A stretch of 64,000 bases of DNA from a virus. The stretch is taken from the IMG/VR virus record IMGVR_UViG_3300043313_001352, positions 1 to 64,000 of that record; one strand, 5' to 3'. How positions within the stretch are numbered: position 1 is the stretch's first letter; each line of letters starts with the position of its first letter. The position numbers and the translations under genes are program-made. Under the pieces are notes generated by a model. It was not told the DNA's origin. It did not search any database and was given only the letters and a program-made list of their open reading frames with translations. This document shows, in pieces, positions 2,248 through 55,871 of the stretch.

Positions 2248-2559
2248 TTAGGGGTCCACTTCCGGCACCGGAGATTTCGTACGAGCGACGTCAGCCAGAC
2301 AGGCTGCGTAGCCTGCCACATCGAGTGCCGAATCGTAATGGCTCGGGTTGTTCGTCAACCGGGCGATCTTGAGCAGGATCATCATCTGGGCGACGTCGGC
2401 TGAGGTGATCTCCGGGGTGCGCTTGGCCGCGAGGTAGGCGTTCCAGAACCGGGCGATGTTGGCGAAGGAGTCCTCGGGCTCCTCATACGTGGTGGCCCGG
2501 TCCTTGGTGACGATCGTGGCCGCCTCCTCCAGGAGCTGTCGGCGCAGGTCAGCGTTCAT
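2248..2559 (-). CDS. DUF6378-like phage protein
   Basis: LLEEAATIVTKDRATTYEEPEDSFANIARFWNAYL...DVAQMMILLKIAR...DSALDVAGYAAC; start overlaps terminase stop. Confidence 0.8.
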   Translation of the reverse strand: MNADLRRQLLEEAATIVTKDRATTYEEPEDSFANIARFWNAYLAAKRTPEITSADVAQMMILLKIARLTNNPSHYDSALDVAGYAACLADVARTKSPVPEVDP

Positions 2560-4061
2560 AGTGGGCGGTTCACCACCGTGAATCCGGGGCTGCGGGTACC
2601 GCGGCCGAACCGTCCGTGCACGGTGCTGCGGCGAGCGGGGATCGCCGAGGGCGTCGGCCGCGGCGGGATCCGCAGCGCGGCGGGTGAGTGAGCACGGATC
2701 GAGTTGAGGTAGAGGCCATCGGGGGGCTTGATCATCAGTGCGGTGGCGCCCCAGACCATCGCGTCGAGCCGGTCCGGAGACTTGCGGTCCATCGGGGTCC
2801 ACGAGGTCAGCTGGGACTCCAGGTCCGGCCACCAGCCGAGCAGGTGGCCACGGTGCTGCTCGAAGGCCAGAGACACGGGCTCCGCCCGTGTCTGCTTGCC
2901 GTAGCGCGCCCGGACGTCGAGCACCTTGATGTTCGGGTCGATGTTGACCAGCGCCGAGCGGACCAGCGCGCCGCCCTGGTTGATCTCGGCCACCACCGGG
3001 CAGCCGTACTCGCGGGCCTTGAGCACCACCTGGGAGGCCCAGATGTTCGGGCTGCCGAGCACCGAGGCATCCTCGACGACGTAGAACTGGCGCCGGTAGA
3101 GATCCTGCTCGGTGGTCGAGGCGCAGACCAGGATGCCGCACTCGTCGGTGGGCTCCTCGGCGACGGACGGGTCGACCGCGATGACGTAGACCAGTGGAAC
3201 GTAGGGAAGGCGCTCCACCCGGTCCACGTCGAGGATCAGCTGGGTCCACAGCGCGCCCTCGACGTCTTCGAGCATCTGCCCGTCCAGCTCCTGCTTGGAG
3301 AGCCGGGTCCCGCCGAAGAGGCCGTAGATCATCCGCAGGTACTCGGGGTCGAGGTTTCCGGCGTTGGCCGCGGTGGTGTCCCGGCGCAGCACCACCGCCG
3401 GGTTCTCCTCGACCAGCTCCAGCAGCTTCTTCATCACCGGGGTGCGCTTGGGGGTGGTCAGCGCCATGATCTGCGGGCGCTGCCGGTCCTTGCCGTAGCC
3501 CCAGGGCAGACGGGCGCCAATCCGGACGTGGTCCCAGGTGGTCAGGCCCGAGGCGTCCGGAGCCTGGCGCCAGGTGGCGATCTCGTCGCACAGCGCCCAG
3601 TGCCCCTGGGGACCACGCAGCACGTCGGGCTCCTCGGCGGTGAACAAGGTGGCCTGGGAGCCGTTGGGCCAGGTGACCCGGCGCTTGGAGGACTCGTAGT
3701 GGGCGCGCTCACCGGGGCGCCCGACCTTGAGCAGGCCGGAGTCACCTTCGACCAGGACGTCACGGGTGTCGGCCGCGGTACGGGCGACCAGCAGCCCGCG
3801 CGAGCCCGGCATCGTGATCGCCTTCTCGTGCGCCCACTCGGTGCCGGTGCGGGTCTTGCCCGCACCACGACCGGCCATCATCAGCCCGATCCACCAGTTG
3901 GCTTCCTCGCGGCTGGGGAAGGTCTGGCTGGGCCGTCGCCAGAACTTCCAGTCGTACTGCAGGTCGTCGAGGTCCAGCCCCTCCAGCGCGGCCTCGCGCC
4001 CCTTGTCGTCCAGCAGCGAGATCTGCTGGGCCAGAGACATCTCTTCGGGGGCGATTGTCAC
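2556..4061 (-). CDS. terL: Terminase large subunit
   Basis: Walker A AGRGAGKT, LRGPQ..ALCDE Walker B, TTP coupling motif, RNase H-like IAVDP and SPDRLDAMVW. Confidence 0.95.
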   Translation of the reverse strand: MTIAPEEMSLAQQISLLDDKGREAALEGLDLDDLQYDWKFWRRPSQTFPSREEANWWIGLMMAGRGAGKTRTGTEWAHEKAITMPGSRGLLVARTAADTRDVLVEGDSGLLKVGRPGERAHYESSKRRVTWPNGSQATLFTAEEPDVLRGPQGHWALCDEIATWRQAPDASGLTTWDHVRIGARLPWGYGKDRQRPQIMALTTPKRTPVMKKLLELVEENPAVVLRRDTTAANAGNLDPEYLRMIYGLFGGTRLSKQELDGQMLEDVEGALWTQLILDVDRVERLPYVPLVYVIAVDPSVAEEPTDECGILVCASTTEQDLYRRQFYVVEDASVLGSPNIWASQVVLKAREYGCPVVAEINQGGALVRSALVNIDPNIKVLDVRARYGKQTRAEPVSLAFEQHRGHLLGWWPDLESQLTSWTPMDRKSPDRLDAMVWGATALMIKPPDGLYLNSIRAHSPAALRIPPRPTPSAIPARRSTVHGRFGRGTRSPGFTVVNRPL

Positions 4062-25849: not shown

Positions 25850-26220
25850 GTCTCAGCCTCTCAGACGCGCTGCAGCGTGCCTAGGGCGCGCTGGGAGCCT
25901 CGCAGGCGCGCTGGGAGCCTCGCAGGGAGCACTGGGCACGTGCTGAGCACACGAGCGCGTGCACGACGAGCACAGGCACGAGCATGCCGATGCGCTGCAG
26001 CACTGAGCACGAGCATGCCTGTGCTGAGAGAGGCAGAGGCAGAGGCAGGCAAGCACAGGCAGGCACAGGCAGGGAGCAGGTGAGTGCACAGGCCAGCCTC
26101 AGGGAGGGAGCCCTGCCTCGTCAGGCAGGGATAAGGGAGAGGCTGGCCTGTGCTTCCCCTGGTCCTGTGTACCCCTGCCCTGCCTGTTCAGACACTGGGC
26201 TAGCACGATTGGTCAGTGTT
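25850..26220. repeat. Non-coding low-complexity and nested inverted-repeat segment
   Basis: 20-bp tandem repeat 25885-25924; GAGCAC/GGCA reiterations; 15-bp IR 26086-26100/26139-26153. Confidence 0.75.
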
Positions 26221-27133: not shown

Positions 27134-27180
27134 CCGGCGAGCCCGGCGCCAGCTGCCTCGGCAGCTGGCGTGCGAGGCGG

Positions 27181-27308
27181 AACGTCAGTGACGTTTACGC
27201 AGCGGCCCGGCGGCCCGGCGCCTGGCCTGGAAGGCGCGCGATGCGCGGGATGGCTGCACGGTGTGGTAGGCTTACGTCAGTAAGCCACAACGACGTAAGG
27301 ACAGAACG
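27181..27308 (+). promoter_or_regulatory. Module 2
   Basis: AACGTCAGTGACGTTTACGCAG ends 27202; TAGGCT at 27267. Confidence 0.8.
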
Positions 27309-30088: not shown

Positions 30089-30134
30089 AGCGCGCGCCAG
30101 CTGACGGCCCCGGCCGCCAGCTGACGGCGCACGG

Positions 30135-30249
30135 AACGTCACTGACGTTTACGCAGCTCCGGCGGCCTGGCGCCGCGGCCGTGCACTCGGAGCGGCGGGA
30201 CGGTGTGGTATGCTGACGTAGTCAGCACGACACAACGACGGAGGACCGG
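30135..30249 (+). promoter_or_regulatory. Module 5
   Basis: AACGTCACTGACGTTTACGCAG ends 30156; TATGCT at 30209; TGCTGAC-gta-GTCAGCA. Confidence 0.8.
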
Positions 30250-31827: not shown

Positions 31828-31873
31828 GCCCCCGCTCGTCCGGCCGCCCCAAGGAGGCGGCCGGGCGGGTCGG

Positions 31874-31996
31874 AACGTCACTGACGTTTACGCAGCCAGC
31901 TCGCCTGGCCGCCGGGGTACGACTCCCGCGTCGCGAGAGGTTCGACTGGACAGTGTGGTATGCTTTCCTTGAAAGCAAACGACGAAGGGACACACC
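31874..31996 (+). promoter_or_regulatory. Module 7
   Basis: Box ends 31895; TATGCT at 31959. Confidence 0.8.
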
Positions 31997-34425: not shown

Positions 34426-34474
34426 TACTCGGCTCCAGGCTAGCGCCAGCTGAAGGCCAGCTGGGCCGCCGCGG

Positions 34475-34606
34475 AACGTCACTGACGTTTACGCAGGCGG
34501 CCAACCCTCCAGCTGGGCTTCAGCGTTGCGCACTGTTGCGATGGCGGGACGGTGTGGTATGCTTACTTCAGTAAGCGACACAGAGACACAACGAAGGGAC
34601 ACCCCC
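34475..34606 (+). promoter_or_regulatory. Module 10
   Basis: Box ends 34496; TATGCT at 34558. Confidence 0.8.
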
Positions 34607-35458
34607 ATGACCGCCAAGTCCGACGCCCGCGAGGCCCGCCTCGAAGCCATGCACGAGGTGCTGGTTGCCAAGACGGCCGAACTCGCCACGAGCGAGGGCT
34701 GGATGCAGTACTTGGAGTTCGCCTCCAAGTTCCGCCAGTACAGCCTCAACAACACGCTGCTGATCCTCTGCCAGCGCCCCGACGCGACGCACGTCGCCTC
34801 GTACAAGAAGTGGGGCGAGATGGGGCGTCAGGTCCGCAAGGGCGAGCGCTCCATGTCGATCTTCGCTCCGATGATGCGCAAGCGCGAGGACGAGAAGACC
34901 GGCGAGGAGAAGCGCTACATCTCCGGCTTCCGGCTGGTCCCGGTCTTCGACGTCGCGCAGACCGACGGCGACCCGATCCCCGAGCCCGTGCTCCCCGTGC
35001 TGCTCGACGGCGAGGCCCCCGAGGGTCTGTGGGATTCGCTGCTGACGATCGTGGACGCCTCCGGCTACCACGTCGAGCGCGGCGACTGCCACGGGGCGAA
35101 CGGGTTCACCCGCCCGAGCGAGCGGCTGATCATGGTCCGCGAGGACGTGAGCGACGCGCAGGCCGTCAAGACGCTGGTGCACGAGGTCGCGCACATGCTG
35201 CTGCACTGTGGCGAGGAGGGCGGGCTCACCGCCGATGCGATGCTGCACCGCTCAGTCGCTGAGGTCGAGGCCGAGTCGGTCGCGCACATCGTCGCCAACG
35301 TGCACGGGCTGCCGACCGAGACCTACTCGCTGCCCTACATCGCGGGCTGGTCCAACGGCAAGCCCGAGCAGGTCGCAGCGACTGCGGACCGCGTGCTCAA
35401 GACCGCGAAGCAGATCCTCGCGATCACCGAGCCCGCTGAGGAGGAGGTCGCGGCCTGA
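34607..35458 (+). CDS. ArdC-like protein (ssDNA-binding N-domain plus zincin-like domain)
   Basis: FRQYSLNNTLLI..QRPDATHVASYKKW..MGRQVRKGE...VFDVAQTDG; TLVHEVAH...EVEAESVA. Confidence 0.9.
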   Translation: MTAKSDAREARLEAMHEVLVAKTAELATSEGWMQYLEFASKFRQYSLNNTLLILCQRPDATHVASYKKWGEMGRQVRKGERSMSIFAPMMRKREDEKTGEEKRYISGFRLVPVFDVAQTDGDPIPEPVLPVLLDGEAPEGLWDSLLTIVDASGYHVERGDCHGANGFTRPSERLIMVREDVSDAQAVKTLVHEVAHMLLHCGEEGGLTADAMLHRSVAEVEAESVAHIVANVHGLPTETYSLPYIAGWSNGKPEQVAATADRVLKTAKQILAITEPAEEEVAA

Positions 35459-45235: not shown

Positions 45236-45346
45236 ACTGACGTTTACGCAGCCTGGCGGCTACCTGGTGGGCTGGCCTGGTTTGCCTGCTGATCTAGATG
45301 GTGTAGACTGTTCTCAACAGCCCAACGACGACAAGGACACACTGAC
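45236..45346 (+). promoter_or_regulatory. Module 18
   Basis: Box ends 45251; TAGACT at 45304; CTGTT-ctc-AACAG. Confidence 0.8.
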
Positions 45347-45709
45347 ATGGCTACTGCTTACAGCCCGCCCGAGGGTTTCGAGCCCCCGCAGATCACGCTG
45401 GAGAACATGCGTGATGGCTCCTACGAGCGCGAGGAGGCTGCCTTCCTCGAACGGCTCGCCGACCGCGCCAAGATGAACGGCACCAGCCCGCTGCTGGGCG
45501 AGGTGGTCCGCTGGTCGCGTGCCGACGGCTACGCGCAGTACATGGTCTGGAACACCAAGCCGCTGCAACTGATCCACCTCAACCTCATCGACGGCTACTC
45601 GATCGAGCCCGCGCTGATCCGGGGCCTCCGGGTCGCCGACATCCGCGACATGGTCGAGAGCGCTGCCCGGCTGCGCGCGCTGTTCAGCCGGAAGCGGGAC
45701 GAGTCATGA
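45347..45709 (+). CDS. Conserved phage hypothetical protein
   Basis: GEVVRWSRADGYAQYMV...LIHL...DGY. Confidence 0.75.
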   Translation: MATAYSPPEGFEPPQITLENMRDGSYEREEAAFLERLADRAKMNGTSPLLGEVVRWSRADGYAQYMVWNTKPLQLIHLNLIDGYSIEPALIRGLRVADIRDMVESAARLRALFSRKRDES

Positions 45710-45975
45710 GCACGATCTCCCGGACCATCTTCACCTTCGAGGTGCTGCACCGCACCGACCAGCCGTGCGTCGAACTGGACGAGGCGCTGGAGCGTGCCTC
45801 GGACGGCCACGCCGTCGGCATGGTCACCTCCGAGAAGACCGTCGAGGTCCCGGACACCGAGGTGCCCGAGACGCTGATCGACTTCGGCAGCGATGGCGAG
45901 TTCTTCGATGACGACCTGGGTGTCGGCACCGAGACCTACACCGTCGTCATCGACGAGAAGAACTGGGACAACTGA
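45706..45975 (+). CDS. Acidic hypothetical protein
   Basis: ATGA coupling. Confidence 0.65.
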   Translation: MSTISRTIFTFEVLHRTDQPCVELDEALERASDGHAVGMVTSEKTVEVPDTEVPETLIDFGSDGEFFDDDLGVGTETYTVVIDEKNWDN

Positions 45976-46214
45976 TGGCCGAGCAGCAGTACACCCAAGA
46001 GCAGGTCAGCGCCGCGCTGAACAAGGCCGCCGACGACATCATCGAGGCCACCGAGGCGGAGGACGAAGGGCTGCGCGACGCGCTGAACCTGATGGTCAAC
46101 GCCGTCGGCTCCTACCTCTGGGACGGCGCTGAGGATCTGGGTGAGGTGGCGGTCAAGAACTACGACGCCGACCTCGACTCGATCGTCGGCTGGATCCAGC
46201 AGGGGACCCGATGA
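45975..46214 (+). CDS. Acidic hypothetical protein
   Basis: TGATG coupling. Confidence 0.65.
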   Translation: MAEQQYTQEQVSAALNKAADDIIEATEAEDEGLRDALNLMVNAVGSYLWDGAEDLGEVAVKNYDADLDSIVGWIQQGTR

Positions 46215-46483
46215 GCGAGGAGCCCCGCGATCGGGTCAAGAACCCCTCGATCAACTTCCCGCAGACGGCGGAGGAGGCGCAGCGCGCCATCGTCCAGCAG
46301 GTCCGCCGGATGCTGTTCGAGGAGCACAGCGCGGGCTACTCGCCGCTGACCAAGACCCGCACCGACGACGCTGGCTTCGGCACCGTCCGCAGGCCGCAGC
46401 AGACCAAGTGGCTCAACGACGCCGCCGACCTGATCGGGGCCGTCATCGGCGACAAGCTGGACGAGATCGAGGCGGTGATCTGA
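46211..46483 (+). CDS. Hypothetical protein
   Basis: Coupled. Confidence 0.6.
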   Translation: MSEEPRDRVKNPSINFPQTAEEAQRAIVQQVRRMLFEEHSAGYSPLTKTRTDDAGFGTVRRPQQTKWLNDAADLIGAVIGDKLDEIEAVI

Positions 46484-46794
46484 TGACCGACGTGAAGCAG
46501 TGGATCGTGATCGGCACCTCGATGATCATCGAGGACGAGCCGGACGCTGAAGCGGCCATCAACCGCGCCCAGGACATGAGCGGCTGGAACTGGGAGGCCA
46601 TCCCGGCGGTGGACCTGAACCCACTGGTGCACTACGCGAACGTGCTGGAGGCCGCCCAGGAGGCCCAGGACGCTGCGCTGGGCGACTCCAACGACACCGA
46701 GATCGAGTTGCTCCGGGACGCGCTGGAGATGGCGCTGAGCGCACTGCACCTCGAACTGCCCGAGCCCCGCGACCCGGACGACGAAGACGCGTAG
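46483..46794 (+). CDS. Acidic hypothetical protein
   Basis: Coupled. Confidence 0.6.
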   Translation: MTDVKQWIVIGTSMIIEDEPDAEAAINRAQDMSGWNWEAIPAVDLNPLVHYANVLEAAQEAQDAALGDSNDTEIELLRDALEMALSALHLELPEPRDPDDEDA

Positions 46795-46805
46795 GTTAGG
46801 TAACC

Positions 46806-47405
46806 ATGGACGGCATCCGGGACGGCTTCGGCGACGACCCCACCGTGGACGAGGTGCTCGCCGAGGAGGAGGAGTTCCTCGTCCGCAACGCCCGCAACGC
46901 GCTGGTCAAGAAACTGGGCCGGGGCTTCCCCGCCGGAGCCGATGAGGACGCTGTCCAGGAGGCCCGCATTGCGGCCTGGCAGTCCTGGGAGAAGAACCAC
47001 AACCGGGCCTACCTGAACATCGCCGCCCGGCAGCGGCTGATGCAGCACGTCTACCGCGACCAGTGGTTCGGCACCAAGCCGACGGCGCACGAGAAGGACC
47101 CGATCCGCCGGGCCAACCGGGACAGCTTCGATGACCCGGACAACGGCATTGACGTTCTGGTCAACTCGGCGACCTGGGTCGACCAGGTGCTGCTCGCCTA
47201 TCACCACGGCGAGATCCACCAGGCGCTGGACGCACTGACGTTTACGCAGCGCGAGTACGTGGTGCTGCGCTTCTGGGGCGGGATGTCGGACACCGAGATC
47301 GCTGCGCACCAGGGGAAGACACGGGGCGGAGTGTCTTCGGTGTGGCACAAGACCATCCGCCCGGCGCTCGCCTCTCAGTTGGAGTTGTTGAGCGACCTGT
47401 GCTAA
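46806..47405 (+). CDS. Sigma-70 family (ECF-like) sigma factor
   Basis: Region 2 EDAVQEARIAAW...AYLNIAAR; region 4 ALDALTFTQREYVVLRFWGGMSDTEIAAHQGKTRGGV. Confidence 0.85.
   Translation: MDGIRDGFGDDPTVDEVLAEEEEFLVRNARNALVKKLGRGFPAGADEDAVQEARIAAWQSWEKNHNRAYLNIAARQRLMQHVYRDQWFGTKPTAHEKDPIRRANRDSFDDPDNGIDVLVNSATWVDQVLLAYHHGEIHQALDALTFTQREYVVLRFWGGMSDTEIAAHQGKTRGGVSSVWHKTIRPALASQLELLSDLC
47233..47249 (+). promoter_or_regulatory. Perfect box inside sigma CDS
   Basis: CACTGACGTTTACGCAG, encodes LTFTQ. Confidence 0.85.
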
Positions 47406-47446
47406 ACTGTTCCTAGGAACAGACCAACGACGAAGGACGAACTGAC
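47398..47446 (+). promoter_or_regulatory. Promoter and leader
   Basis: TGTGC-TAAACT, CTGTTCCTAGGAACAG, AACGACGAAGGAC. Confidence 0.75.
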
Positions 47447-47932
47447 ATGACTGATCTCCCCACCGGCTACCGCTGGGCCACCGCCGAAGAGACCGAGGCG
47501 CACGCCGTCACGGAGAACCCGATGATGGTCGTGGTGCCCCGCACCGTGGACTCCTCGGGTACGCCGTACACCGAGGGCGAGGCTGACCTCGCGCTGCCCA
47601 TCGACCTGCCCCGTGACGAGGACGGTTTCATCGAGACCTCCGCCGTGCACGGCGAGATGTGGATGGTGCACATCCAGTGGACCGAGGACCACGACGGCCG
47701 CGTGATCGACCCGGAGCACGAGGAGTACCCGGAGACCTTCCACGGACCGTTCTTCAGCCAGCAGGAGGCTGCTGACTGGTCCAACGCCTACCCGGAGTTC
47801 ACCGAGATCCACGACATGTACGTCAAGAACCTCAACCTGGTACGGCCCACCGGGCTGCCGACGATCACCGCGAAGACCGTGGCGTACGCCGACGGCATGT
47901 CCGCCGCCCGTGCCGACCTGGGGCTCCGATGA
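47447..47932 (+). CDS. Acidic hypothetical protein
   Basis: Leader upstream. Confidence 0.7.
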   Translation: MTDLPTGYRWATAEETEAHAVTENPMMVVVPRTVDSSGTPYTEGEADLALPIDLPRDEDGFIETSAVHGEMWMVHIQWTEDHDGRVIDPEHEEYPETFHGPFFSQQEAADWSNAYPEFTEIHDMYVKNLNLVRPTGLPTITAKTVAYADGMSAARADLGLR

Positions 47933-48336
47933 GCACGCTGCCTGCCCTGGTCAAGGACGTCTCCGGCCAGTACTACGGCGGAGCGTTCTGGAACAGCGCC
48001 GACTACCGCGTCAAGATCGTGGCGCTCGACGGCACCGGGAAGAACTTCCGGATGACCGTGGAGACCGCCAGCGGCAGTGAGGTCGGCGAGTACGAGTTCG
48101 GCATGGCCGAGGTCGAGGGCATCGCCCGGATGGCCTCCACCGACCACGGGCTCGGCGCCTACCAGGACGACTGGACCATCCCGTTCGGGATGGGCCGGGT
48201 GCTGACCTGGGACCTGCCCACCATCGAGCACCACCTGGTCACCGTGGACGAGGACGTCGTCGAGGAGATCGCCGCGTGGCTGGAGTACGCCACCGGCGAG
48301 AAGGTCTGGGATGGCGGAGAGGACTGGGAGTACTGA
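47929..48336 (+). CDS. Hypothetical protein
   Basis: Coupled. Confidence 0.65.
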   Translation: MSTLPALVKDVSGQYYGGAFWNSADYRVKIVALDGTGKNFRMTVETASGSEVGEYEFGMAEVEGIARMASTDHGLGAYQDDWTIPFGMGRVLTWDLPTIEHHLVTVDEDVVEEIAAWLEYATGEKVWDGGEDWEY

Positions 48337-48569
48337 TGAGCACCTTCATCCGCAGCGCCGAGCACATCATGGCTTCAGTTGCTGACGCCATCGACGCCAT
48401 CGACGACGGCGACATCGACATCCACACGATCAGCCTGGTGCTCAACGGCCAGCACGGGGAGTTCGACCTCCGCATCGAGGCCACCGACGACGACATGGAA
48501 GACCGGCTGTGGACCGGCATCGCACACCGCGGTGGCGGCATCACCGATCTCGGGGAGGTGCTGGACTGA
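48336..48569 (+). CDS. Small acidic protein
   Basis: Coupled. Confidence 0.6.
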   Translation: MSTFIRSAEHIMASVADAIDAIDDGDIDIHTISLVLNGQHGEFDLRIEATDDDMEDRLWTGIAHRGGGITDLGEVLD

Positions 48570-48766
48570 TGGTGCTGCCACTGACGGTCACCGTGGTCGC
48601 CTGCCTGGCCATCATCGTGATGACCAGGCCGACGTTGCAACGCGACGTCGATGGCGTTGTTCAGCCACGCACCGTGGTCGTGCTCGCGAAGCTCTCGATG
48701 CTGGCCGCCATCATCGTCGGCGGCTGGTCGATCTTCGTGCTGATCGCCATCCAACTCACACCCTGA
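48569..48766 (+). CDS. Small two-TM protein
   Basis: Coupled, hydrophobic. Confidence 0.55.
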   Translation: MVLPLTVTVVACLAIIVMTRPTLQRDVDGVVQPRTVVVLAKLSMLAAIIVGGWSIFVLIAIQLTP

Positions 48767-48779
48767 CTGACAACAACCC

Positions 48780-48827
48780 TGTGGTACTCTGTTACCACGC
48801 AACGACGCAACGACAAGGAGAACTGAC
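48780..48827 (+). promoter_or_regulatory. Promoter and leader
   Basis: TGTGG-TACTCT, CAACGACGCAACGACAAGGAG. Confidence 0.65.
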
Positions 48828-49697
48828 ATGGCACGTGTGACCCACGTCCGCAAGGCGCAGCAGCGCTACGAGACCGTCCCCGTCATCGACGAGGCCACCG
48901 GGGAGCCCAAGCGCACCCAGGTGATGAAGAACGGCGAGCCCAAGATGACCCGCGCGAAGGCCGGTCGCCCCGCCCGCCCGGTCTTCATGACCGTCACGGT
49001 GCAGGACAAGACCAAGCCGCTGCCGCCGTACACCTGCGACTCGTGCCACCAGCCCATCGAGGTCGGCACGCCGTACAAGCACATCACCCCGAAGAGCGGT
49101 CCGTACGGCGGGCACAAGCGCACTCGGCACGAGTCCTGCCCGACCTGGCAGGTCTGGGAGTACAGCAACTCCTGGAGCGCTCGGATCGCCCAGGCCACGC
49201 ACGACTTCGACGTCAGCAACGCCGAGTCCACCGATGACGTTCAGAGCGCTCTCGACGACGTGGCGGCTGCCATCAAGGAGCTGGCCGAGGAGTCCCGTGA
49301 GACCGCTGGCAACATCGAGGACGGCTTCGGTCACCCGACGTCGCAGTCGGAGGAGGCCGAGCAGCGTGCCGACGACCTGGACGGCTGGGCCGACGAGATC
49401 AGCGGTGCCGACATCCCGGACCTCCCGGAGCCCGAGCCGCGGTGGTTCGTCACCAACGGCGACGGTGTCGCCTCGGACCTGTTCGAGGAGGACGGCTACG
49501 ACTCGGAGATGGACGCCGAGCAGGCGCTCGCCTCTCACCGTGACGACAACGACGAGGAGCCTGGCGAGGACGGCGAGTTCGACGACGGGTTCGAGATCGA
49601 GGAGATCACCCCGGACGAGCCCACCGAGGAGCAGCTGAACGACTGGCGTGACGAAGTCCTGGACGCTTGCTCGATCGTCGACGAGAGCCCCGTCTGA
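48828..49697 (+). CDS. Phage protein with basic Zn-ribbon N-half and very acidic C-half
   Basis: CDSCHQPIEVGTPY...RHESC; D/E-rich C-terminus. Confidence 0.75.
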   Translation: MARVTHVRKAQQRYETVPVIDEATGEPKRTQVMKNGEPKMTRAKAGRPARPVFMTVTVQDKTKPLPPYTCDSCHQPIEVGTPYKHITPKSGPYGGHKRTRHESCPTWQVWEYSNSWSARIAQATHDFDVSNAESTDDVQSALDDVAAAIKELAEESRETAGNIEDGFGHPTSQSEEAEQRADDLDGWADEISGADIPDLPEPEPRWFVTNGDGVASDLFEEDGYDSEMDAEQALASHRDDNDEEPGEDGEFDDGFEIEEITPDEPTEEQLNDWRDEVLDACSIVDESPV

Positions 49698-49999
49698 TGG
49701 CCGCCGAGGAACTGACGACCTACCAGGTCGAGGTGCTCGTCGAGGTGAAGATGGCCGGTGACGAGAACGCCGCGTACACCGCGGTCGACGAGATCATGCA
49801 GCGTGCCTGGGACACCGATGACGGTCGCAAGTGGGTGCAGCCCAAGTGGCACTTCGAGATGCTGGAGGGCTGCGTCGGTCTGGCCGATGCGCTCCGAGAT
49901 GTCGTCGGCGATGCGTGTGAGTCGCACGCTGAGTTCGAGCCCGGCTGCTCCACCTGCGTGGCACTGAGCCTGCTCGCCACCCGTGAGGTGACGTCATGA
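49697..49999 (+). CDS. Hypothetical protein
   Basis: Coupled. Confidence 0.6.
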   Translation: MAAEELTTYQVEVLVEVKMAGDENAAYTAVDEIMQRAWDTDDGRKWVQPKWHFEMLEGCVGLADALRDVVGDACESHAEFEPGCSTCVALSLLATREVTS

Positions 50000-50349
50000 G
50001 GCAACTGGACCTCACCGTCTTCGAGCCCGGCGACACCGTCGGCACCCTGTCCCAGGACGGCCGGGTCTCACTGTGGACGGTCTCCCCTGAAGGCGGGCTG
50101 ACCCGTGCCGACAACCGGCTGTTCGGAAACGCCACTGGGTTCGACCTGGACACCCCCATCGAGCAGCTCAACCTCCAGGTGCGCACCTTCAACCTGCTCA
50201 AGCGCGAAGACGTCAACACGGTCGGCGACCTGCTGACGTTTACGCACGAGAAGGGCGACGAGGAGATGCTCGCGATCCGCAACATGAGCCAGAAGAACGT
50301 CGACGAGATCAGGAACTGGGCCACCAGGCTGAGGAGCGAACGACCGTGA
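49996..50349 (+). CDS. RNA polymerase alpha-CTD-like protein
   Basis: PIEQLNLQVRTFNLLKREDVNTVGDL...EEMLAIRNMSQKNVDEI parallels RpoA CTD PIE.L.L.VR..N.LKRE...TVG.L...LL.IRN.G.K...E. Confidence 0.85.
   Translation: MRQLDLTVFEPGDTVGTLSQDGRVSLWTVSPEGGLTRADNRLFGNATGFDLDTPIEQLNLQVRTFNLLKREDVNTVGDLLTFTHEKGDEEMLAIRNMSQKNVDEIRNWATRLRSERP
50233..50247 (+). promoter_or_regulatory. Box inside alpha-CTD CDS
   Basis: CTGACGTTTACGCAC, encodes LTFTH. Confidence 0.75.
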
Positions 50350-50567
50350 GCGACGAGAAGCAGCTGCCGCCGGGAGAGAAGCGGTTCATCGCCAAGCCGC
50401 GGACCCAGGGCAAGCACACCACCTGGAACGTCTATGACCGGCAGCGGGCGAGCTTGCCAGCGAGCTTGCCAGGCTTCGGTGTGGTCGCCTCCGGGTTCAC
50501 TGACGAAACCGAGTGCCAGGCTGAAGCTGACCGTCTCGCCGCGTTCGTCGAAGGAGCCACCCAGTGA
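50346..50567 (+). CDS. Small hypothetical protein
   Basis: GTGA coupling. Confidence 0.6.
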   Translation: MSDEKQLPPGEKRFIAKPRTQGKHTTWNVYDRQRASLPASLPGFGVVASGFTDETECQAEADRLAAFVEGATQ

Positions 50568-50872
50568 GCATGCTGCTGAAGACCGCCCTGGTGCTGTACA
50601 TGCTCGCCACCGCAGCGACCGGTGCGTTGTCGGCCTTCGCCATCGCGGTCGACGCCTGGCCGTTGGCGATCGCCATCATCGCGGTCTGGATGTTCGGCTG
50701 GAGCCCGCTGGTGATCGTGGGCTACGCCGAGCTGGAGCGGCGCCTCGACGCAGAAGCTGGAGCTGGCCCGCCTGCGCAAACGTCAGTGGGACGTCATCGG
50801 GCCGACGGCCCAGCTGACCCAGCTGGCGACCAGGTGGAGCGGTTCCATCTCCTTGAGGAGCTGGCCTCGTGA
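50564..50872 (+). CDS. Membrane protein
   Basis: Two TM segments. Confidence 0.55.
   Translation: MSMLLKTALVLYMLATAATGALSAFAIAVDAWPLAIAIIAVWMFGWSPLVIVGYAELERRLDAEAGAGPPAQTSVGRHRADGPADPAGDQVERFHLLEELAS
50772..50788 (-). promoter_or_regulatory. Inverted box variant
   Basis: Reverse complement CACTGACGTTTGCGCAG (1 mismatch). Confidence 0.65.
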
Positions 50873-51192: not shown

Positions 51193-51210
51193 CGTCACTG
51201 ACTTTTCCGC
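51191..51210 (+). promoter_or_regulatory. Degenerate box
   Basis: AACGTCACTGACTTTTCCGC. Confidence 0.5.
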
Positions 51211-51331
51211 TGTAGCTAGCACCGTTGCGCCAGCTGAAGCTACCCGTCGGTCGACATCCCGTGGACCGGTCGGTTAGAGTAGTACAAATCAACCATCAAC
51301 ATGAACCATCAACGACATGAAGGACAGCACC

Positions 51332-55498: not shown

Positions 55499-55871
55499 GG
55501 GCTAGGCTCTCCCCGCCCTCGGCAAGTCGGGGCAAGGCTTGGCTTGGCATGGCAGGGCAGGGCTCCCCCTAGGCCAGGCGCGGTCAGGCAGGGTTCGGCT
55601 CGGTCAGGCAGGGCAGGTTCGGCAGGGCGCGGTGTGCTGAGGTCCGGCGTGGCGAGGTGGGGCAAGGCACGGCAGGCTCGGAGCGGCTCGGCACGGCTAG
55701 GCATGGTGAGGCAGGCACACCCAGGCGGGGTCCGGCAGGGCACGTCAGCATTTGGCAGGGCATGGCAGGTGGGGCAAGGCTCGGTGTGGCCTGGCGGCGT
55801 ACGGCATGGTTGGGTTCGGTTCGGCGTGGCAGGCACGGTTAGGCATGGCAAGGTGAGGCGTGGCGAGGCGC
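55499..55871. repeat. Period-5 GGNNN tract
   Basis: Runs such as ggcaa ggctt ggctt ggcat ggcag ggcag ggctc. Confidence 0.8.

Follow-up and report, generated by a model that had tools for sequence, protein, structure and literature searches.

In Escherichia coli, the RNA polymerase alpha subunit's C-terminal domain (alpha-CTD) contacts DNA through the '265 determinant' (R265, N268, N294, G296, K298, S299 and E302) and sigma region 4 through the '261 determinant' (D259 and E261), while CAP-type activators touch its '287 determinant'. Phage proteins that act on this domain have been described: T4 Alt and ModA ADP-ribosylate alpha R265, and gp67 of the Staphylococcus aureus phage G1 blocks the use of alpha-CTD and UP elements via sigma region 4. 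Rac of phiKMV is described as cleaving alpha (PMC7552054), and an alpha-CTD-like domain is present in PglW of type-2 BREX, the Pgl system of Streptomyces (PMC12839542). Here we analyze a phage gene that encodes an alpha-CTD itself. It lies in a window of 64,000 bp, bases 1-64000 of the 114,034-bp IMG/VR virus record IMGVR_UViG_3300043313_001352, and codes for a 117-residue protein in which the alpha-CTD is joined by a linker to a small N-terminal beta module. A search of the literature yielded no description of a phage-encoded free or stand-alone alpha-CTD.

The gene probably helps the phage to re-route host transcription. Our preferred, tentative reading is that its product acts in trans as an alpha-CTD-like co-factor or adaptor of phage transcription, to which we assign a probability of roughly 0.35.

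Results

The gene and its alpha-CTD

The gene and the parts of its product are located as follows.

49996..50349, + strand: gene for the 117-residue two-module protein (N-terminal beta module, linker, alpha-CTD), from the open reading frame, GC3 and homologues
49996..50136, + strand: N-terminal module, residues 1-47, a beta sheet of three strands whose sequence resembles a single WD40 blade (FEPGDTVGTLSQDGRVSLWTV)
50125..50154, + strand: linker, residues 44-53, variable and of low model confidence
50155..50337, + strand: alpha-CTD domain, residues 54-114, four helices, from Pfam, PDB, Foldseek and conservation
50245..50256, + strand: four-residue insertion H84-E-K-G87 relative to RpoA, within the loop of the 287 determinant, seen as a gap in HMMER alignments

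The ATG start overlaps the stop codon of the upstream gene (ATGA) and is preceded by a Shine-Dalgarno-like GAGGTG motif 7-13 nt to its 5' side, while the stop codon overlaps the GTG of the next gene. The GC contents of the three codon positions (GC1 0.61, GC2 0.41, GC3 0.90) fit those of genuine genes in a genome of 68% GC, so the open reading frame is taken as a real gene.

The C-terminal half of the protein is a genuine alpha-CTD of double helix-hairpin-helix fold, homologous to the end domain of RpoA. Residues 51-107 match Pfam PF03118 (RNA_pol_A_CTD) with 56.4 bits (cut-off 23.8, E 2.5e-15), and the same family is matched by all 23 aligned family sequences. In searches of the PDB, phmmer with the single sequence found M. 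tuberculosis RpoA 249-298 as top match (E 1.6e-9) and the family profile reached RpoA at E 5e-19; the closest solved relatives are the RpoA proteins of M. tuberculosis, M. smegmatis, S. coelicolor and B. subtilis. With 19 homologues as input, AlphaFold2 produced a model whose predicted local distance difference test score (pLDDT) exceeds 90 across residues 54-114. Compared by Foldseek with the isolated alpha-CTD chains 9dvt, 7vpd, 1z3e and 8hih, this model gave template modelling (TM) scores of 0.75-0.81 and root mean square deviations (rmsd) of 1.5-1.9 Å over 55-63 residues. Profile and structure thus bear out an earlier note, made from the letters alone, which had likened residues of about 53-110 to the RpoA C-terminal domain.

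That note had also described the domain as standing alone, and this agrees with the profile searches: families of the alpha-NTD (N-terminal domain of alpha), the dimerisation and assembly domain represented by PF01000 and PF01193, were absent, with no second significant Pfam family in the protein and no match to PF01000 anywhere in the phage. NCBIfam rpoA models were matched over their last ~55 positions only and far below their cut-off. As the alpha-CTD is not joined to an alpha-NTD, the protein is not a polymerase subunit.

Contact surfaces of the domain

The 'VR..N.L' helix pointed out earlier is present as V62-R63-T-F-N66-L-L68, with R63 and N66 corresponding to E. coli R265 and N268. Residue equivalents were derived from the HMMER alignment to M. 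tuberculosis RpoA together with the established E. coli alpha-CTD numbering, and were followed through 21 family members.

R265 equivalent: DNA contact, kept in 20 of 21
N268 equivalent: DNA contact, kept in 21 of 21
N294 equivalent: DNA contact, kept in 16 of 21
E302 equivalent: DNA contact, kept in 20 of 21
G296, K298 and S299 equivalents: DNA contact, variable (9, 10 and 7 of 21)
D259 and E261 equivalents ('261 determinant'): sigma region 4 contact, variable

The insertion H84-G87 is the sole gap relative to M. tuberculosis RpoA and falls between the equivalents of T285 and E286. It is present in nearly all family members, and the residues flanking it are variable. Judged from these alignments, the phage domain appears to keep the core of the DNA-contact surface, but not the surfaces that contact host proteins. 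With variable equivalents of the 261 and 287 determinants and an insertion in the 287 loop, the protein would be a poor mimic of the protein-binding surfaces of the host alpha-CTD.

The N-terminal module

AlphaFold2 placed three strands in the N-terminal module (residues 14-18, 24-29 and 35-37), with a pLDDT of 82.8 whether it was modelled alone or within the full protein. Residues 1-38 are the best-conserved part of the protein and hold 15 of the 21 invariant columns of the close set; in the N-terminal alignment (A3), 16 of 47 columns are invariant. The linker that follows has a pLDDT of ~60 over residues 41-50 and a mean column conservation of 0.39, compared with 0.60-0.65 in the two modules. 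That the N-terminal module is conserved so strongly implies that the protein has a second binding function.

Sequence searches of the PDB with residues 1-47 returned almost only WD40 proteins, among them SEC13, Seh1, PWP2, the actinobacterial PkwA and the Nostoc-derived WRAP proteins, at whole-sequence E-values of 1.2e-5 to 1e-3, which are sums over repeated weak blade matches (best single blade 17 bits, independent E-value 0.037). In these alignments the matching part is the blade motif 'FSPDGxTIASxSxDGTVxLW', and a few family members match propeller families weakly (E 0.04-0.27). Pfam WD40 (PF00400) did not match the protein at E <= 1. With the model of the N-terminal module alone, neither Foldseek (best E 0.25, to MBD, WW and small beta units with high rmsd) nor VIA-align over 48,161 chains (best Z 2.9) gave a meaningful match, and an ESM Atlas search with residues 1-48 gave no usable one. 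By its sequence, the module can be called WD40-blade-like. The earlier note had set this segment apart as unrelated; that holds with respect to the alpha-NTD, but the segment is better described as a conserved WD40-blade-like unit. A possible origin of the N-terminal ~47 residues as an alpha-NTD remnant was considered and rejected, as the collinear match to M. tuberculosis RpoA 116-160 reached only 3-4 bits (i-Evalue 420-970).

Each chain holds one WD40-like unit, and no other WD40-like gene was found in the phage. Longer proteins bearing the module were not found either, which is weak evidence. A four-copy homo-oligomer prediction of residues 1-47 gave scores of 0.02, 0.51 and 0.05, which speak neither for nor against assembly. 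A single WD40-like blade is also of interest in its own right, for the origin and assembly of propeller repeats.

Distribution and evolution of the family

Metagenome collections (JGI, ENA, NCBI and Logan) contained 19 close full-length homologues of 48-80% identity, and ~13 further clusters of 35-53% identity were found among 1.8 billion representatives. The two-module form is kept, without frameshifts, in ~30 sequence clusters down to ~35-45% identity. Where the homologues carry names at their source, these are automatic ('DNA-directed RNA polymerase alpha subunit'). One further viral genome with the gene was identified, a complete 177-kb phage with terminal repeats; for the distant members P0019 and P0022 no further viral contigs were found. 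The family is thus known only from metagenomes and this one other phage. Family patterns had no member in 185,579 species genomes, and PHROGs gave no match at E <= 1. In 50,697 GenBank phage records a stand-alone homologue was not found by tblastn, which returned ten matches, all to the CTD only; the two of them that were inspected are the ends of full-length rpoA open reading frames in UNVERIFIED records. The phage-labelled UNVERIFIED records MT835508.1 (316-residue open reading frame) and OR846589.1 (312 residues) are most simply read as bacterial DNA.

A search of the species genomes with the CTD alone returned solely rpoA-like matches of 42-53% identity. As no sequenced genome has a CTD closer than ~53%, the gene is not a recent capture of rpoA. 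The ratio of nonsynonymous to synonymous substitutions (dN/dS, omega) was 0.17-0.70 for the N-terminal module and 0.41-1.07 for the CTD; these Nei-Gojobori values are inflated by extreme codon bias, so that only their ranking is meaningful. With omega up to 0.75 for the whole gene and ~1 for the CTD in one pair, the gene might be taken for a decaying, functionless fragment of a captured host rpoA. We regard this as very improbable, given the persistence of the intact full-length form across the clusters, the invariant residues in both modules, the high GC3 and the translationally coupled start.

Alpha-CTD domains also occur in many architectures, with more than 1,100 representative proteins carrying one. 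Among large metagenomic proteins, P0026, P0032 and P0038 (1,059-1,313 residues) combine 3-7 alpha-CTD repeats with sigma-70 region 4; P0038 additionally contains a ResIII/SNF2 helicase, and P0025 has 10 alpha-CTD repeats. The phage protein itself is matched by the PADLOC model of PglW (24.4 bits, E 1.5e-6) and by NCBIfam BREX_PglW. Because the alpha-CTD fold is promiscuous, a serious rival to a role at promoters is a DNA-binding helix-hairpin-helix protein without any link to RNA polymerase, which might serve as an accessory of the nucleoid or of replication/recombination, or interfere with defence as a mimic of the PglW domain. The helicase fusions, the arrays of up to 10 repeats, the alpha-CTD-like domain described in PglW (PMC12839542) and the fact that solely DNA-contact residues are conserved in the CTD all suit such a protein. 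The RpoA match is far stronger than that to PglW (56 vs 24 bits), the nearest solved relatives are actinobacterial RpoA CTDs, and the gene sits with a sigma factor to which a shared DNA box links it, as set out below; on balance we consider this explanation possible, at odds of about one to three.

Genomic context

The source of the window is an uncultured soil phage. As stated in the earlier note, the DNA is that of a phage: the virus record is rated 92% complete, a terminase large subunit gene is present, and window proteins are distant relatives of proteins from Gordonia, Microbacterium and 'Actinomycetia' phages. The window DNA occurs in soil metagenomes, in at least 6 DNA runs, with no RNA run listed for it. 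Further genes encode an ArdC-like protein and AAA ATPases. Multisubunit RNA polymerase catalytic subunits were not found in a search across the phage; since it lacks these yet has a sigma factor, it would have to steer the host polymerase.

2556-4061: terminase large subunit gene
45236..45251, + strand: last promoter-associated copy of the 16-bp box, upstream of the gene run with the sigma and alpha-CTD-like genes
46806..47405, + strand: extracytoplasmic function (ECF)-type sigma factor gene in the same run (Pfam Sigma70_r4 and r2, PHROG 1740, NCBIfam SigE-family/ECF)
47234-47249: exact box within the sigma gene, where region 4 begins
50232..50247, + strand: box within the alpha-CTD-like gene (GCTGACGTTTACGCAC), 14 of 16 positions, coding L-L-T-F-T-H and running into the insertion

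The gene run 45347-50872 is tightly packed, with overlapping or closely spaced genes, and the co-occurrence with a sigma factor that had been noticed before was recovered, the sigma gene lying 2.6 kb upstream of the alpha-CTD-like gene in the same run. In four related contigs the gene order is kept: sigma factor, 289-residue protein, alpha-CTD-like gene, 182-residue protein and 250-residue helix-turn-helix (HTH) protein. A 135-residue gene adjoining the sigma gene (47929-48336) has dN/dS values of 1.42 and 1.06 against two relatives, which may reflect fast evolution or a mis-called frame.

Other features lie outside this run. Runs of GGCAG/GGCAA-type pentamer repeats are found at 55520-55800 and 26028-26073 (families D7 and D11), and a 4,116-residue open reading frame on the minus-strand block contains repeats.

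The 16-bp box

Allowing for up to 3 mismatches, the 16-bp box ACTGACGTTTACGCAG occurs in 23 copies, all within window positions 26625-52909; 22 lie on the + strand. About 18 copies are promoter-associated, and 14 are followed by an extended -10-like element (GTGTGGTAtGCT), a hairpin of the GCTTACGTCAGTAAGC type and a strong ribosome-binding site. The offsets from box to -10 (53/56, 65-66, 74-77 and 85/87 nt) are phased at 10.5 bp (R = 0.81, n = 14), in line with the class-I-like phased sites of the earlier note. Taking the hexamer as -12 to -7, the box centres lie near -61, -73, -83 and -93. Class I activators at CAP-type promoters sit at -61.5, -71.5, -82.5 or -92.5, from where they contact the alpha-CTD. 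By analogy, the geometry of the box promoters implies alpha-CTD-type contacts there. The 177-kb relative carries 22 forward and 1 reverse copies of the box.

A subset of the boxes (27178-27202, 30132-30156, 31871-31895 and 34472-34496) is extended upstream to GGAACGTCACTGACGTT. In this extended form a perfect palindrome of 15 bp (AACGTCA-c-TGACGTT) overlaps the box, which suggests three TGACG-type half-sites. Inside the box regulon, a 310-residue protein encoded at 34526-35458 combines an ArdC N-terminal domain with a DUF6782 metallopeptidase-like region and is a candidate anti-restriction protein. A degenerate box (3 mismatches) lies ~82 bp upstream of an inferred transcription start in 51197-51280; the promoter there (TCGACA-18-TAGAGT) is the only sigma-70-like -35/-10 pair found in 44-56 kb and precedes the 182-residue and 250-residue (HTH + HNH_repeat) genes, which are candidate early regulators or box binders.

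Two further copies lie inside the coding regions of the sigma and alpha-CTD-like genes. Four relatives write the box in the alpha-CTD-like gene as ACTGACGTTTAC(G/A)CAC, using CTA and the rare codon TTT, which occurs 4 times against 259 for TTC in 31 phage genes, and the 177-kb relative retains both in-gene copies. Their persistence at synonymous positions, spelled with rare codons and shared by the 177-kb relative, argues for a DNA motif under selection within both regulator genes. In distant family members the position codes LDYYHE or LDLYHN and the box is absent. A reverse copy with 1 mismatch is located at 50772-50757 (- strand), in the last gene of the run; from the copy in the alpha-CTD-like gene it lies 540 bp downstream. 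Neither the in-gene boxes of the sigma and alpha-CTD-like genes nor the reverse copy are followed by a -10-like element.

The geometry of the box promoters is also compatible with an inhibitory role. As a decoy, the free alpha-CTD, perhaps made multivalent by its N-terminal module, would compete with the host alpha-CTD, which is tethered to the polymerase, for upstream DNA at promoters or for a box-bound activator. Host promoters that depend on UP elements or activators would then be shut off, or the phage's own box promoters would be switched off once the sigma factor is made, in a middle-to-late switch. Besides the class-I-like geometry with the alpha-CTD contacts that it implies, the retained DNA-contact residues, the co-location with a sigma factor that would take over transcription, and a fast-evolving CTD surface as expected of a host-interaction protein are in keeping with competition. 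Mimicry by a domain with unconserved 261 and 287 equivalents and an insertion in the 287 loop would be poor, which weakens the earlier suggestion that it titrates host activators. In addition, a free domain is at a disadvantage against a tethered one unless present in quantity or as an oligomer, and competition leaves the strongest conservation, that of the N-terminal module, unexplained, while an adaptor or oligomer would need such a second function. We hold a decoy or competitor to be nearly as likely as a co-factor or adaptor, though itself doubtful.

Discussion

The co-factor or adaptor reading is preferred because the module outside the CTD is the most conserved part of the protein and because the surfaces by which a host alpha-CTD contacts proteins do not appear to be mimicked. 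A role at promoters is further supported by large metagenomic proteins in which alpha-CTD repeats are joined to sigma region 4.

In the mechanism that we propose, the protein would be made together with the phage ECF-type sigma factor from the last box-headed gene run. A flexible linker of ~10 residues would tether the DNA-contacting alpha-CTD head to the 45-residue beta module, which, to judge from its conservation, most likely grips a conserved partner. Candidate partners are the host RNA polymerase, the sigma factor of the phage, the box-binding factor and other copies of the same protein. Acting in trans at promoters, the protein could then serve as a surrogate alpha-CTD, with its head on promoter-upstream DNA and its N-terminal module available for protein contact. 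The set of promoters that receive alpha-CTD-type upstream contacts might thereby change during a switch from box-dependent to sigma-dependent ones, and the conserved in-gene boxes suggest that the box-binding factor could feed back on both the sigma and the alpha-CTD-like genes.

A narrower form of this proposal makes the phage alpha-CTD in trans an obligatory contact for the box-bound factor, in class-I-type activation or in its shut-off, with the WD40-like blade docking on the host polymerase or sigma factor or assembling a multi-head ring. We think this unlikely, at under one chance in five.

Several observations weigh against a co-factor or adaptor. No contact with RNA polymerase is predicted, and the variable equivalents of G296, K298 and S299 could make DNA binding weaker or alter it. 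The four contigs whose gene context is readable all come from one phage lineage. Omega of the alpha-CTD-like gene (0.45-0.75) is higher than that of the sigma gene (0.10-0.22) and the HTH gene (0.10-0.37). Finally, alpha-CTD-like domains also occur as plain nucleic-acid-binding modules outside transcription, as in the PglW kinase of type-2 BREX and in helicase fusions.

If the protein works at promoters, it would represent a new way to redirect host transcription, by a borrowed subunit domain on a new anchor, and the same genome would offer a test bed in the form of ~18 phased-box promoters, a phage sigma factor and boxes within both regulator genes. It would also mean that the alpha-CTD fold can act in trans, which bears on the uncharacterised metagenomic alpha-CTD proteins and on the PglW domain.

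Comparison with known systems

The alpha-CTD and phage proteins acting on alpha are known; what appears to be new, from the sequence comparisons, is the combination of one WD40-like blade with an alpha-CTD, for which PHROGs, GenBank phages and species genomes gave no example. With the alpha-CTD of bacterial, especially actinobacterial, RpoA (PF03118) the phage protein shares the fold, sequence homology, the equivalents of R265, N268, N294 and E302, and a flexible linker in front of the domain. It differs in being phage-encoded, in lacking the alpha-NTD, in the four-residue insertion in the 287 loop, in an unconserved 261 determinant and in the variable G296, K298 and S299 equivalents.

In the PglW and alpha-CTD repeat proteins the fold likewise occurs outside RpoA, but there the domains are internal to large multi-domain proteins, the match is weaker (24 vs 56 bits) and the N-terminal beta module is missing. 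Blade strands of SEC13, PkwA and WRAP proteins can be aligned with the phage motif F-x-P-G-D-T-V-G-T-x-S-x-D-G-x-V-x-L-W. In contrast to WD40 propellers, including oligomers of short fragments (PDB 6r5x-6r60 and 7bid-7big), the phage protein has a single unit and neither a Pfam WD40 nor a structural match.

The box promoters resemble those of class I activation at CAP-type promoters in the placement of the box upstream of an extended -10, at four positions separated by 10.5-bp steps. As with T4 Alt/ModA, G1 gp67 and phiKMV Rac, the outcome may be that a phage alters the use of alpha-CTD-dependent promoters; those proteins modify, block or cleave the host domain, whereas the present phage encodes a copy of the domain itself.

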